Source: an uncultured Flavobacteriaceae bacterium
Lineage (GTDB): Bacteria; Bacteroidota; Bacteroidia; Flavobacteriales; Flavobacteriaceae
Length of the DNA stretch: 64,000 nt
Assembly: GCA_947494205.1 (NCBI GenBank)
Contig: CANLUH010000004.1
Span: 152,773-216,772 of the forward strand
Direction: 5' to 3'
Within the stretch, counting starts at the first letter, position 1. The number at the start of each line of letters is the position of its first letter. Position numbers and translations under genes: made by a program. The notes beneath the pieces were generated by a model, which saw nothing but the letters and a program-made list of their open reading frames with translations, was not told where the DNA came from and did not search any database. Positions 22,869-39,180 of the stretch are shown here, piece after piece.

Positions 22869-22940
22869 GGTGACTTCGGGGATCGAACCCTGTTCTCCTC
22901 ATTCACAGTGAGGTACTTTACCTAATAAGCTAAAGTCACC
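22869..22940 (-). tRNA. tRNA-His(GTG)-like with encoded G-1; aberrant T-arm
   Basis: 8-bp acceptor including G-1:C73, D-arm GCTT-ATTAGGTA-AAGT, anticodon arm CCTCA-CTGTGAA-TGAGG. The T-arm has only 3-4 pairs and a 6-nt loop. Confidence 0.45.
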
Positions 22941-22956
22941 ATATTATTCTAATTTG

Positions 22957-23027
22957 ATGACCTGATAGGATTCGAACCTATACAACCAGAGTCAAATTCT
23001 GGTATGCTGCCTTTACATCACAAGTCA
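22957..23027 (-). tRNA. tRNA-Gln(TTG)
   Basis: Acceptor TGACTTG/CAGGTCA, D-stem ATGT/GCAT, anticodon arm CCAGA-ATTTGAC-TCTGG, T-arm ATAGG-TTCGAAT-CCTAT. Confidence 0.6.
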
Positions 23028-23200
23028 TTATTGTACTCCACCTTGGATTACTCATTAACTTCTATTGTTTTAAGAAATCGTGAGTACTTCGTATTTCGAA
23101 CCAAGACTGAACGGGGCTTAAACCTAAACTTCGTTCGGTACCTTCGAAAAAACAATTGTTTTTTCTCGCCAATCTCTTCCAATTGGGCTAGTGGAGCATA

Positions 23201-23275
23201 GTACAGAAAGAGAGATTCGAACTCTCAAAATCTTGATTCTAAGTCAAGCGCGTATACCAGTTCCGCCATTTCTGC
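23201..23275 (-). tRNA. tRNA with anticodon TAG (Leu-like) but short variable loop and 8-nt T-loop
   Basis: Acceptor GCAGAAA/TTTCTGT, anticodon arm CTTGA-CTTAGAA-TCAAG (perfect), T-arm GAGAG-TTTCGAAT-CTCTC. A class-I architecture is atypical for Leu. Confidence 0.45.
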
Positions 23276-23509
23276 ATTTTATTTTTTCTAATATTTAGGT
23301 CATAAAAAAAGCACCTCTTTTTGGGAGGTGCTATACTTAAAAGTTATATACTATTTATGTCATATAAACTGTTTCTCCCGTTGTATTAAAAATAATTGCG
23401 CATCACTACATAACTGCCCTCCTCTTGTAAGTGCATTGCCACTGGCATTAAATTGTAAATTATGTATTAAAAGATGTTTCATTATTTTAAAATGTATTAA
23501 TGTCTTTTC

Positions 23510-23775
23510 GACGGTGCAAATATGTAATGCTTTTTTGAATTAGACAAGAAAAAATTTAATTTATTTATTTTAAAATCAGATAGTTAGATAAAAATTAAAC
23601 AATAAAAACCCTGTCCGTTTTATACAGATAGTTAACATATTTCACAACAGACTGTCTCTCAATTGTTTCTTGTTTCAATGACTCTATTTTACTATTCTTA
23701 ATTACTTAGCATTACTTTCAAAATTTTTCATAAAAAAAGCGTCCAATTAAAATTGGACGCTTATAAATTATAGTG
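23510..23775. promoter_or_regulatory. conserved ~260-bp intergenic cassette (copy 1 of 3)
   Basis: Read on the minus strand: terminator hairpin (aagcgtccaattttaattggacgc + T8), conserved body (ccctgtccg...acagactgtctc) and a promoter-like box CATTACATATTTGCAC facing the downstream tRNA cluster. Near-identical architecture at 39810-40085 and 48495-48745. Confidence 0.5.
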
Positions 23776-23941
23776 ATTTAAGGTTTTATCTTACATTATA
23801 TTGGTATTAAAAATCACATAGCATCCTGTTTCGCTCCATAAATCTTGGACGAAAGTATAGAGTCTGGCTCCATTTATACTATGTATTTTTTGACTTGTCA
23901 TTTGCTTTATTGCATATTTTAACGCTACAAATATGCTATTA

Positions 23942-25012
23942 TTATTTTAATTGTTCTTCTTTTTCTCTATAAAATTCTTCTCTTAGCTCTATTAATAGAT
24001 TATTTACAGCATTTATATCTGGACGTTCTTGTAAGTTCGAAGTTTCGTAAATAGTATTTAATTCTGCTTTCATTGCTTCGGCTTTAAGTACTAAATCATC
24101 ATATTCGAAAGCTGCATTTTTTATAGATAATAAAAACGCTCTATCGTTTCGTTTTACATTAATTGTTTTAGTTGTTCCTATTTCTTTTGCCATGTGTAAT
24201 AACCTAAACGTATGCATCATGTTTTTTGCATCGTAGTTTTTATCATGAGAAATATTGCTTTTGTAACGTTCTTCGTTTCTATTATTTACCCAAGTCCAAT
24301 ACTCTTTATACCTTTTACAATAACTAGAATAACCGTCTACATTAAAATATAGTATTGCTATCGGCTGTTCTGTTTTTGGAACAGAACTTAAACACACCTC
24401 GTTTGCTTGCGTTCTAGAAACACCTTTATACGGTAGTGTTTTGCTATAAAACACATTATAACAATCTTTCATATGTGGTATTTTAACCAATCCACAATTT
24501 GAAGCTTCAAATGCATTTTCTTTTAAAAATTCTGGCAATAAAATAGATTGTTTTTCGGTTCTAACATAACAAAAATCTTCAACGGTCTTTCGTTCTTTCT
24601 CTACTGGGTTTACAATTTTCTTGTTTAAGCCTCTTGCTTTTTTTATTTGTGTAAAAGCGTAATTAGCGAAACTATTCTTACATAGTTTAGACAAAAAAAC
24701 AGATTGTTTTATGGCATCGTATATTGGGTGTTTATATAGTATACAAGCTTCTGGAACATTTAGTAATTCTAAAATATTTGGATTATTCTTTGCTAACAGT
24801 TCTATAAATTTTCGCAGCTCGTAATAAGCTATGTCATTAGTTTCGTTGTTAATCTGCCCTACATAATCTAAACTATAAAACTGTGTTTTTGGTAATATAT
24901 AAACGCCTCTAATATCGGTGTCCGAAGTTTCAGTTTCTAATCCATATGCTCTGCTTCCACTTATACATTCGAAAATGATATGTCCTGAGTTTTTAAGTTC
25001 TTCTAGTGTCAT
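23942..25012 (-). CDS. pol-beta superfamily nucleotidyltransferase
   Basis: N-terminal GS...DxD motif (ISGSRAYGLETETSDTDIRGVY). Paralogous to the 25994-26740 product. Confidence 0.6.
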   Translation of the reverse strand: MTLEELKNSGHIIFECISGSRAYGLETETSDTDIRGVYILPKTQFYSLDYVGQINNETNDIAYYELRKFIELLAKNNPNILELLNVPEACILYKHPIYDAIKQSVFLSKLCKNSFANYAFTQIKKARGLNKKIVNPVEKERKTVEDFCYVRTEKQSILLPEFLKENAFEASNCGLVKIPHMKDCYNVFYSKTLPYKGVSRTQANEVCLSSVPKTEQPIAILYFNVDGYSSYCKRYKEYWTWVNNRNEERYKSNISHDKNYDAKNMMHTFRLLHMAKEIGTTKTINVKRNDRAFLLSIKNAAFEYDDLVLKAEAMKAELNTIYETSNLQERPDINAVNNLLIELREEFYREKEEQLK

Positions 25013-25988
25013 AGTCTTTTTTAAAAGTGGTTAGCAAATTAATTATGGTGTCTGCTGAAGTATTATAAAGGTATGCTTCGTAGTCTTCGAATTGCAATTG
25101 AAAATCAGTCATAAAACTTCCCAATGTCTTTCCTTTTAAATCTGGAAATAACGCCATAATAATACGGCCATTATACTTTGCTCGTATTGAAGCTATATAC
25201 ACTTCTCGTTCTTGTTCTTCCTTAATAGCTTCTATTAAATTAGCCTCGGGAAAGTAATTTGCTATCGTTTCTAAATACGCTTCTTTTTCAAGGTATTTTG
25301 GTTCTTTTTTTATATTATTAGCTTTTAAATAATCTATAAAAGCAATCATTGTTGGTCTTTGTTTTCTTTTTTGAATTGCTTTGTCGTTTTCTAAATAAGG
25401 TTTTGTAGAGAAATAAGGACTTGCAATTACCCAATTAAATAAGGATTCTTTATCATTAAACCCTAGAGTCCAAGTTTTATAATCTAAATTTAAAAAAGTG
25501 TAAATCTTTTCAAAATCCATACTCACAGTAAGGTCTTTCGAGTAGCTTTCTTGAGTCTCTCTTCTATACACATATAGCAATCCTTTTTCACCGTATTTTA
25601 AATTGAAGCGTTTAAACATGCGCCCTATTATATTTCCAACATCATTAAAACACAGAAAATTATATGTACTTTTAAAATAGGTATTAGATTTTATAAAGAA
25701 GTCTACTTGAAAGTTTGCGTAAACAGTGCTAAACACATTACCTACAGATTTATGCTTATTAATATTTAAATCTGTTACAATGTCTTCTTTTAGCTGATTC
25801 CAGTTTTCAATTTTAGAACTATTTATTAAAATATCTAAATCTCCAAAATCGGCCTTGTTTCCATAGTACTTTGGTATTGCGTAATTGTCTTTTCCTATTT
25901 TTTCATCTAGGTATTTAGAAACGTGTTCCTCAATTTTTAAATACTCTATTTTAGATATTCGCCCTAACTTGAATAAGTTTCCACCCAT
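24993..25988 (-). CDS. hypothetical protein (possible nucleotidyltransferase-like, FGDLDILI motif)
   Basis: 331 aa; its stop overlaps the start of the downstream gene. The YYGNKADFGDLDILIN motif is NTase-like but not diagnostic. Confidence 0.4.
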   Translation of the reverse strand: MGGNLFKLGRISKIEYLKIEEHVSKYLDEKIGKDNYAIPKYYGNKADFGDLDILINSSKIENWNQLKEDIVTDLNINKHKSVGNVFSTVYANFQVDFFIKSNTYFKSTYNFLCFNDVGNIIGRMFKRFNLKYGEKGLLYVYRRETQESYSKDLTVSMDFEKIYTFLNLDYKTWTLGFNDKESLFNWVIASPYFSTKPYLENDKAIQKRKQRPTMIAFIDYLKANNIKKEPKYLEKEAYLETIANYFPEANLIEAIKEEQEREVYIASIRAKYNGRIIMALFPDLKGKTLGSFMTDFQLQFEDYEAYLYNTSADTIINLLTTFKKDYDTRRT

Positions 25989-25993
25989 TATAA

Positions 25994-38585: not shown

Positions 38586-38594
38586 TTTTTTTTG

Positions 38595-38666
38595 CGGTTC
38601 ATACGAGAATCGAACTCGTATCTCTCGAGAGACAGTCGAGAAGGATAACCATTACCCCAATGAACC
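38595..38666 (-). tRNA. tRNA, anticodon ambiguous (GTC Asp-like or TGT Thr-like depending on stem register)
   Basis: Acceptor GGTTCAT/ATGAACC, T-arm ACGAG-TTCGATT-CTCGT. The anticodon region TCTCGACTGTCTCTCGAGA admits two registers. Confidence 0.5.
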
Positions 38667-38801
38667 AATTTTGTACATCTACCAAGATTCGAACTCGAAA
38701 CTATAGATTGGAAATGCTTTGCATTCACGAATACCAATTTAAAATTATAGAGTAGTGAGCTAAGTCTACTATGTTACCAATTACACTATAGATGCTTATT
38801 G

Positions 38802-38883
38802 TGGGAATGATAGGATTCGAACCTATTAAGCCTTGGCACCAGTTTTACAGACTGGCTCAACTCACCATCGTTGACGCATTCCC
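38802..38883 (-). tRNA. tRNA-Tyr(GTA)
   Basis: Acceptor GGGAATG/CATTCCC, D-stem TCAA/TTGA, anticodon arm CCAGT-CTGTAAA-ACTGG, 12-nt variable arm, T-arm ATAGG-TTCGAAT-CCTAT. Confidence 0.7.
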
Positions 38884-38894
38884 TTTTATTTTTG

Positions 38895-38967
38895 AGACAA
38901 GGATGAGAGTCGAACTCATAAAATTTAGTTTTGCAGACTAATGCCTTAACCATTCAGCCACCTTGTC
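38895..38967 (-). tRNA. tRNA-Cys(GCA)
   Basis: Acceptor GACAAGG/CCTTGTC, anticodon arm TTAGT-CTGCAAA-ACTAA, T-arm ATGAG-TTCGACT-CTCAT. Confidence 0.65.
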
Positions 38968-38973
38968 ATTTAG

Positions 38974-39045
38974 CGATACCGAAGGGATTCGAACCCTTAA
39001 CCTGATGGTTAACAACCAACTGCTCTGCCATTGAGCTACGATATC
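38974..39045 (-). tRNA. tRNA-Asn(GTT)
   Basis: Acceptor GATATCG/CGGTATC (one G-U), D-arm GCTC-AATGGCA-GAGC, anticodon loop TTGTTAA, T-arm AAGGG-TTCGAAT-CCCTT. Confidence 0.65.
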
Positions 39046-39050
39046 ATGTT

Positions 39051-39180
39051 TTGGAGTTACGAAGACTTACACTCCGTTTTGCAAATTGCAAATGAGCTTG
39101 CGAATTCAACGAAACTTATTTATCAAAATAAATTTCAGTGAGTTAAACCCGTTGTTTTAGCCAGTTAAACTATAACCCCA
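39051..39180 (-). ncRNA. tRNA-like element whose acceptor strands (GGGGTTA / TAACTCC) are ~115 nt apart; possible intron- or insertion-containing tRNA
   Basis: 5' side has acceptor plus a perfect D-arm GTTT-AACTGGCTA-AAAC. The 3' side has CGGAG-TGTAAGT-CTTCG plus a complementary acceptor strand. The intervening segment contains the palindrome TTGCAAATTTGCAA. Confidence 0.25.

Follow-up and report, generated by a model that had tools for sequence, protein, structure and literature searches.

A stretch of 64,000 nucleotides (nt) from an uncultured Flavobacteriaceae bacterium (assembly GCA_947494205.1, contig CANLUH010000004.1, positions 152,773 to 216,772; hereafter the window) carries a chromosomal RNA-repair and transfer RNA (tRNA) island of about 30 kb, in which several tRNA-like genes are conspicuously oversized. 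The island encodes the RNA ligases RtcB (44678–46069; 276 bits against the Pfam RtcB model), Rnl1 (30209–31237) and Rnl2 (21831–22829) as well as PNKP (29307–30188), along with 21 tRNA genes that ARAGORN places in three arrays; the relevant features are all on the minus strand. An earlier note had listed four tRNA-like elements here, at 36732–36844, 39051–39180, 23038–23197 and 32945–33060, and had proposed that they are intron-bearing, split or permuted tRNAs acting as ligase substrates, or else tRNA mimics of the Y-RNA type linked to RtcB. The four elements and the ligases are present as described, but the oversized genes fall into three unrelated classes: a tRNA-shaped chimeric RNA that carries a conserved two-helix motif (class A), tRNA genes interrupted by a small repeat (class B), and a GOLLD-like RNA with permuted tRNA-like modules (class C). 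Taken as a whole, this three-class explanation is probably correct.

The class A element at 36732–36844 has the intact acceptor, D and T arms of a tRNA, whereas its anticodon loop is replaced by a copy of the motif. The Rfam tRNA model (RF00005) matches it at 52.3 bits over model positions 1–71 (gathering score 29) with about 42 nt inserted, and ARAGORN, with introns allowed, places a 40-nt insert at position 31/32, in agreement with the earlier description of a tRNA-like element with a long insert. In its standard order the motif comprises a helix P1 (4 bp), an internal loop with AAA opposite C, a helix P2 (5 bp) and a single-stranded junction of the form UUCCUAU(A)...(A)UUAC, with a variable insert of 3–80 nt between UUCCUAU(A) and (A)UUA(C). 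The chimera's insert (36774–36813) is a circularly permuted copy that runs UUAC, P2 3' strand, capped P1 hairpin, P2 5' strand, UUCCUGU, so that the anticodon stem of the tRNA emerges at the place where ordinary units hold their variable insert. Four units in standard order occupy 36669–36718, 36589–36663, 36517–36584 (with a T-arm-like hairpin inside) and 36450–36504, the last ending about 20 nt ahead of the start codon of a gene for a 610-amino-acid (610-aa) protein (34599–36431). What had been taken for three decayed tandem tRNA copies at 36566–36735 is thus this array of four motif units (36450–36718), not decayed tRNAs. The octamer GTTCCTRT occurs five times between 36486 and 36786, on the minus strand only. 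A promoter reading of the GTTCCTAT repeats was rejected, as their spacing to TTAC varies and their flanks covary as RNA helices.

The motif is a genuine conserved RNA structure and is absent from Rfam. For comparison, 28 loci related to the 610-aa gene were assembled from viral and metagenome contigs and from genome assemblies (cited below by L-numbers), and 38 distinct motif units from the window and 20 of these loci were aligned, with the variable inserts swapped for a spacer so that the alignment columns stay in register. In this alignment, 98.2% of the cells are paired and all nine pairs have changed on both sides; the covariation score of 0.876 compares with 0.345 ± 0.024 in shuffled alignments (0 of 500 reach 0.876), and no slid register exceeds 55% pairing. 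The unit search demanded P2 pairing and made no use of P1, and the P1 helix, independent of the search in this way, is 98.7% paired with covariation in 4/4 pairs. Furthermore, the frequent G-U pairs are compatible only with an RNA of this strand.

The chimera is conserved along with the array. In related loci, the leader of the 610-aa gene contains 3–5 motif copies, of which the first is permuted and grafted into a tRNA body. A tRNA with a 37–47-nt insert sits 200–350 nt before the gene in nearly all loci with sufficient upstream sequence, and the chimera is kept upstream of the gene in at least 12 loci, represented by 12 distinct sequences. RNAalifold, run on these 12 sequences, again predicts helices for the acceptor, the D and T arms and P2, with compensatory changes in 13 of 21 pairs, and the P2 pairs ACUUU/AAAGU are supported in the alignment of chimeras. 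The 7-nt anticodon loop with a conserved anticodon that marks a decoding tRNA is missing: the 'anticodons' called by ARAGORN (CAT, TTA, TCG, CCA, TCC, AAG, ATA, TAA, ATT, AAA and CAA) differ at nearly every locus, with assignments to Met, stop, Arg, Trp, Gly, Leu, Tyr, Asn and Phe. Because the apparent anticodon changes in nearly every homologue, the chimera is not an intron-bearing decoding tRNA. In one related locus (L011), an ordinary motif unit encloses a permuted domain (9881–9976) of T arm, capped acceptor and D arm, the design known from YrlA. As a separate observation, the 610-aa homologue in two viral contigs that also bear the chimera and tRNA arrays is followed directly by a tmRNA-like RNA (L002, 3530–3806; L003, 4444–4720), which scores 52.2 bits against a gathering score of 47.

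The 610-aa protein belongs to a large family (1487 clusters at 50% identity, 1019 of them with E < 1e-30) that remains without a match in Pfam, NCBIfam and PDB sequence searches, whether with the single sequence or with a profile. Its structure model was poor when built from a shallow alignment, but a 57-sequence alignment gave one with a predicted local distance difference test score (pLDDT) of 90.7 and a predicted template modelling score (pTM) of 0.89. According to this model the C-terminal domain has a TerD fold, and the N-terminal region of about 370 residues is a novel helical domain with no solved relative. Homology to Ro60/TROVE was considered and rejected, because sequence and profile searches were negative and the model shows a helical region joined to a TerD fold. 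A second homologue search with a diverse alignment returned mostly the same close relatives.

The motif and the 610-aa family are co-conserved. Family members at about 34% identity have 3–4 motif units directly upstream, one such member being flanked by an RNA ligase and PNKP on a phage-like contig, and a member at 28% identity (L025) has two units just downstream; copies downstream of the gene also occur in L012 and L023. The company of RNA-repair genes recurs as well. RtcB is directly beside the 610-aa gene in nine loci (L006–L010, L019, L020, L027 and L028): in seven loci of the Chryseobacterium type it lies directly upstream of the chimera, and in two Winogradskyella genomes directly downstream of the gene. 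The nucleotidyltransferase RlaP follows in eight loci, namely the seven of the Chryseobacterium type and L017. The most noteworthy result, which goes partly beyond the earlier note, is a strongly covarying motif that Rfam lacks: it is built into the body of a tRNA, and it is conserved together with a large, unannotated family of TerD-domain proteins in RtcB, Rnl and PNKP contexts.

As to function, RNase P and RNase Z would release a tRNA-shaped RNA of about 113 nt from the chimera, and the motif units would be putative binding sites for the TerD-domain 610-aa protein. The chimera or motif RNA and the protein may then form a Y-RNA-like ribonucleoprotein that works with RNA-repair enzymes, the candidate partners being RtcB (in related loci), RlaP, Rnl and PNKP; the motif copies in the leader could also give autoregulation. 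These proposals, together with a possible Y-RNA-like tethering or gating role, are drawn by analogy with the Rsr–YrlA–RtcB arrangement (PMC4201824). In its full form, the proposal is that motif and chimera are the RNA partners of the helical and TerD family in an undescribed Y-RNA-like ribonucleoprotein for the response to tRNA or rRNA damage in Bacteroidota and their phages, in which RtcB, RlaP, Rnl and PNKP would take part and, in some genomes, a GOLLD-type RNA as well. We advance this tentatively and put its chances at slightly below even. The binding of the motif by the 610-aa protein is a putative one, suggested by co-conservation. Several points weigh against the proposal: the protein has no recognisable RNA-binding domain, RtcB lies 8 kb from the 610-aa gene in the window instead of next to it, and TerD domains are known as calcium-binding stress proteins.

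Among the competing explanations, the one that survives best holds that the motif array is a purely cis-acting leader of the 610-aa mRNA, for instance an operator for autoregulation, a sensor akin to a riboswitch or an element for processing and stability, with the tRNA shape serving as a signal for RNase P and RNase Z only. Such a role would suit the position of the array, which invariably lies on the strand of the gene, directly after an upstream repeat shared by the transcription units of the island, with its last unit closely preceding the start codon, and it would suit the P2 helix of this last unit, which is conserved or almost so across genera as AGGAG/CUCCU or AGGUG/CACCU. It accounts poorly for 3–5 tandem copies with highly variable inserts, which speak against a single ligand pocket, and for the copies located downstream of the gene; in addition, a full tRNA elbow or a YrlA-type domain (L011) within some of the units exceeds what a leader needs. 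On balance, an exclusively cis-acting role appears rather unlikely.

The proposed ribonucleoprotein has its closest parallel in rsr-yrlBA-rtcBA operons, which encode the YrlA and YrlB RNAs along with Rsr (Ro60) (Chen et al., 2014; PMC4201824). The class A RNAs resemble YrlA and YrlB in being encoded beside an RNA-repair ligase gene as several units in tandem, in the design of each unit as a terminal stem with a conserved internal-loop element and a large variable loop, and in the presence of one unit with a tRNA mimic (T arm, acceptor, D arm); the permuted order of T arm, hairpin and D arm is likewise found in L011 and, in class C, at 33060–33132. They differ in that no Rsr or TROVE protein was found among the scanned open reading frames of at least 120 aa in the window, the candidate partner being the helical and TerD protein, in that their conserved stem motif is another one, and in that the chimera retains the topology of an ordinary tRNA, its acceptor ends open and the motif placed in its anticodon loop. 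By this comparison, we read class A as a Y-RNA-like arrangement with a different protein. The suggestion of Y-RNA-like mimics tied to RtcB was thus apt as to architecture and context, for 36732–36844 with its array and for 33060–33132, although neither is a member of the YrlA/Rsr family. To our knowledge, no RNA that mimics a tRNA has so far been known to act with a protein in RtcB repair operons, except in the Ro60–Y RNA particles of bacteria; the class A locus would recreate that design from different parts, which makes a second, independent 'Y-RNA-like' system testable.

Class B comprises seven interrupted tRNA or tRNA-like genes of the island, which together carry nine copies of a 47–55-nt repeat, located in T loops or anticodon loops and in either orientation. 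Two of them were among the elements first noticed. The tRNA-Ala(UGC) gene at 39052–39179 holds a 55-nt copy (39092–39146; nhmmer E 2e-10) in reverse orientation in its anticodon loop, and the decayed tRNA-Leu-like gene at 23034–23197 has a 47-nt copy (23048–23094) in its T loop. In both, the acceptor strands are far more than 75 nt apart, as had been noted, and the D arm of the Ala gene is intact; their description as perfectly complementary was slightly overstated, since both acceptors (GGGGTTA/TAACTCC in 39051–39180 and GCTCCAC/GTGGAGT in 23038–23197) form 7 bp that include one G-T (G-U in the RNA). The Leu-like gene has a T arm of CTTGG/CCAAG and, in its anticodon-arm region, a second and different insertion, the perfect palindrome GAAAAAACAATTGTTTTTTC at 23150–23190. 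The earlier note had not included the remaining five interrupted genes: tRNA-Gly(UCC) at 38674–38795, with a 50-nt reverse copy (38714–38763) in the anticodon loop that ARAGORN also calls as an intron; tRNA-Gln(UUG) at 38000–38173, with a reverse copy (38093–38143) in the anticodon loop and another (38014–38067) in the T loop; tRNA-Ser(UGA) at 39369–39503, with a 53-nt copy (39383–39435) in the T loop; tRNA-Phe(GAA) at 37656–37834, with copies in the anticodon loop (37744–37797) and the T loop (37671–37722) and a decayed T stem; and a tRNA-Gly(GCC)-like gene at 19256–19380, with a 51-nt copy (19271–19321) in the T loop.

A repeat search turned up inverted-repeat pairs (I1–I5) in which inserts from anticodon loops are the reverse complement of those from T loops, and all nine copies align in one common orientation. 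Their consensus, GAAAURC-GAA-GYAUUCAYGA ... RUGAGYUAA, contains an internal hairpin; the sequence family, with the core GTAYTCAYGA, is common to the gaps in the tRNA arrays. An nhmmer profile built from the nine copies finds exactly these nine in the 64-kb window, with E-values from 1e-9 to 2.5e-13. In the common orientation, the copies are preceded by TTCGAA, TTGGAA, TTGCAA, GTCAA or TTGAA, and this TTSSAA-type sequence fits a DNA-level target readable on either strand. Dispersal was scanned with a 20-nt pattern in one genome per species, a search for which several hundred chance matches were estimated over the whole collection. Among the 119 matches listed, about 65 are full elements of 50–56 nt (GAAATRC-GAA-GYATTCAYGA ... 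RTGAGTAA) whose flanks show no conservation; nearly all come from Bacteroidota and most lie outside tRNAs, while four are in T loops of flavobacterial tRNA arrays, including an Aquimarina counterpart of the Leu-like gene. A start-codon reading of the 50-nt repeat, which ends in RTGAGTAA, was discarded because only 9 of 60 copies open a reading frame of at least 60 codons. A literature search with the repeat sequence gave unrelated primer matches only.

Orthologous sites are empty in a relative. A compact array in Winogradskyella (L028) contains orthologous Gly-UCC, Ala-UGC, Ser-UGA, Gln-UUG, Phe-GAA and Leu-UAA genes, all uninterrupted, among them those of Ala (4116–4188), Gly(UCC) (4528–4600, by alignment), Ser (3841–3928) and Phe (5686–5759). 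We read the repeat as a mobile repeat and not as an intron, on account of its two orientations, the empty orthologous sites, its dispersal outside tRNAs and the lack of any ribozyme or bulge-helix-bulge signal. The element would insert at the DNA level, may target TTSSAA-type loop sequences, perhaps exposed on single-stranded hairpins, and would leave inactive or at best tolerated tRNA variants. It resembles miniature inverted-repeat transposable elements and repetitive extragenic palindromic elements in its length of about 50 nt, its internal hairpin, its many dispersed copies in both orientations, its presence or absence in related genomes and its insertion beside TTSSAA or TTGAA. It differs from them in being confined, within the window, to tRNA loops, and in that the insert junctions, with an ambiguity of just 2–3 nt (AA / TTT), do not allow a target duplication to be demonstrated; no transposase was identified for it, and none was searched for. 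Targeting of single-stranded DNA as in IS200/IS605 offers a parallel that we regard as a lead only.

The main alternative for class B is that the inserts are introns, transcribed with the tRNA, cut by an endonuclease of the island and resealed by RtcB or by PNKP and Rnl. As with group I introns and archaeal bulge-helix-bulge introns, the inserts lie in the anticodon or T loop of recognisable tRNA genes, exactly at about 32/33 or 36/37 in the former and 59/60 in the latter, positions of a kind that archaeal non-canonical introns also occupy, and ligases of the tRNA-splicing type are encoded nearby, together with PNKP and with uncharacterised nuclease-like genes (DUF434/DUF5616 and the RNaseH_like family PF04308). 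The Gly insert is also common to L026, with conserved ends. Against this, a single element occurs in both orientations and, among the matches listed, mostly outside tRNAs across Bacteroidota, and the orthologous genes are uninterrupted. No group I intron or other ribozyme model matched at E <= 10 between 18000 and 40500, in a search of the kind that the earlier note had suggested, and inserts of 40–55 nt are too short compared with a group I core of more than 200 nt. No bulge-helix-bulge appeared in minimum-free-energy folds, although no search dedicated to such structures was made, and no splicing endonuclease domain of the EndA type was found in the open reading frames (ORFs) of at least 120 aa that were scanned. 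When the inserts are excised in silico, ARAGORN recognises the Gly(UCC), Gln, Ser and 19256 genes, whereas the Ala, Phe and Leu-like genes stay unrecognised and have weakened stems. We consider splicing improbable, and the reading as intron-bearing, split or permuted ligase substrates finds no support: the insert of the chimera is a conserved motif, and the others are copies of a dispersed bidirectional repeat.

Some observations sit less comfortably with a mobile repeat. All nine copies in the window are in tRNA or tRNA-like genes. These genes account for 4.5% of the window and for only 20 of its 116 TTSSAA sites, so the target sequence alone does not explain their location; the element may target the loops of hairpins in single-stranded DNA, or its copies may be tolerated only where a tRNA gene is redundant. 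The Gly, Gln and Ser genes become well-formed tRNAs once the insert is removed in silico, and ARAGORN finds no other Gly-UCC, Ala, Ser-UGA or Phe gene in the island, on which grounds the inserts may be removed or used at the RNA level. Finally, the counterpart of the Leu-like gene in Aquimarina rubra (L085) agrees with it in the T arm, the 3' strand of the acceptor and the insert, which could mean retention instead of a recent insertion. For annotation, the two classes together carry a warning, as 'intron-containing' tRNAs reported by ARAGORN in flavobacterial arrays are chimeras or repeat-hit tRNA genes. The island also has odd tRNA-like genes at 19180–19249, 18327–18395 and 37841–37911, one with a 2-nt 'anticodon' in the ARAGORN call; two of them are weak duplicates of the Asp (19010–19082) and His (22867–22940) genes, at 34.9 and 29.1 bits.

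Class C lies in an ORF-free stretch of about 2 kb (32552–34598), which starts with the shared upstream repeat and holds a GOLLD-like RNA that the earlier note had missed. The conserved 3' domain of this RNA (33510–33987) matches RF02032 at 136.1 bits (E 5e-37) over model positions 1–416, and a homologue in L028 scores 136.9 bits; in that locus the GOLLD block directly precedes the chimera, the 610-aa gene and RtcB. GOLLD RNAs (Weinberg, 2009, as cited in PMC12286853) often occur in tRNA arrays, with embedded tRNAs or pseudo-tRNAs (PMC12286853; PMC6582537), and the locus in the window is a new member of this documented pattern: a large structured RNA that lies in a tRNA island, contains tRNA-like pieces and is followed by others, and matches along the whole 416-position model. 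It differs from the known cases in that it is chromosomal, in Flavobacteriaceae, and not part of a phage or prophage, in its linkage to RNA-repair genes, and in a conserved 3' extension beyond the model. No mention of GOLLD RNA linked to a chromosomal RNA-repair regulon was met in PMC12286853 or PMC6582537, or among the literature matches listed; the locus ties an RNA type of unknown function to such a regulon. Directly 3' of the GOLLD domain, a highly conserved 117-nt domain lies in a tRNA-like frame (33288–33495; an ARAGORN 'tRNA' with a 117-nt intron). The window and L028 have almost the same core sequence here, whereas the tRNA-like flanks differ. A T-arm-like hairpin, CUAGGUUCGAUUCCUAG, was also seen at 33883–33908, in the variable linker of the GOLLD-like RNA.

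Two permuted modules, in the domain order of YrlA, form the 3' end of this non-coding stretch. Module 1 (33060–33132), as judged from its fold and the YrlA alignment, has a 5-bp closing stem (UCUAU/AUAGA), a T arm, a capped acceptor hairpin (UCUCAA/UUGAGA) and a D arm. Module 2 (32948–33062) consists of a T arm, a capped acceptor hairpin (UAUGAC/GUCAUA), a D arm, an Asn-like anticodon arm and a terminator-like hairpin with a U run; positions 8–63 of the Rfam tRNA model match it at 32948–33002 with 34.8 bits, with an overlapping match of 27.3 bits. The arrangement that the earlier note had described at 32945–33060, a T arm and 3' acceptor strand preceding a tRNA 5' half, is real. Two points count against the assignments made for class C. 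The GOLLD score falls below the curated Rfam gathering score of 150, even though the whole model is aligned, and the only homologue of the modules, in L026, is 95% identical, which leaves too little divergence for covariation.

The remaining possibility, that the class A and C elements are true bacterial Y RNAs, YrlA or YrlB, from an operon of Rsr (Ro60) and RtcB, is very improbable: although the YrlA model (RF02553) matches 33023–33132 (E 3.8e-5) with T arm, capped hairpin and D arm aligned, the context of RNA repair includes RtcB, and the modular design of stem and tRNA-like part is that of PMC4201824, the match reaches 35.3 bits against a gathering score of 69 with mismatched closing stems, the model has no match at 36450–36844, no TROVE domain occurs in the scanned window ORFs of at least 120 aa, and the conserved YrlA element GNCGAAN0-1G (PMC4201824) is not in the motif.

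The upstream repeat of about 60 nt, in which the inverted repeat TACGCA-N7-TGCGTA comes before a TATTTG box, is present in six copies. One (36932–36997) precedes the chimera and the 610-aa gene, and the other five are at 21645–21710, 31241–31306, 34535–34600, 40528–40593 and 40684–40749. Each stands just ahead of an island transcription unit, namely DUF6331 with the main tRNA array, the chimera with the 610-aa gene, the GOLLD stretch and Rnl1–PNKP, and the repeat is found again in L017 and L026–L028. It looks like a common promoter or operator of the regulon. A protein with WYL, WCX and PhyH domains (54410–56131, plus strand) is a candidate regulator for this operator-like repeat, and a WYL/WCX gene is also near the island in L027.

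The assignment of the window to a Flavobacteriaceae chromosome, and not to a phage, is based on the flanking genes, which encode FabH, AccB/AccC and secreted proteins with a type IX sorting domain, and on the closest relatives of the 610-aa protein, which are from Winogradskyella, Psychroserpens, Algibacter, Kordia and Chryseobacterium. A phage origin was also examined directly, and megablast and blastn searches of the locus against GenBank phages found no similar DNA. Besides the genes named above, the island encodes two RlaP nucleotidyltransferases (23942–25012 and 25994–26740), an RNase T-like exonuclease, a Band 7 protein, an RNaseH_like protein and an elongation factor G (EF-G) paralogue. 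A PrfH-like release factor (43297–43989; 81.7 bits against Pfam RF-1), RtcB and a tetratricopeptide repeat (TPR) protein (42666–43199) make up the known PrfH–RtcB ribosome-rescue module, which is accompanied, within 42666–51001, by a PcfJ-like protein and the EF-G paralogue. Lastly, a Flavo-1 RNA (RF01705) was found at 31345–31420 on the plus strand (53.6 bits) and in L027 at 11881–11957 on the minus strand (50.5 bits). The two genomes agree in that this RNA runs antisense to the island genes, in the interval from the end of a gene to the upstream repeat that comes next; in L027 this interval separates the 610-aa gene from RtcB.

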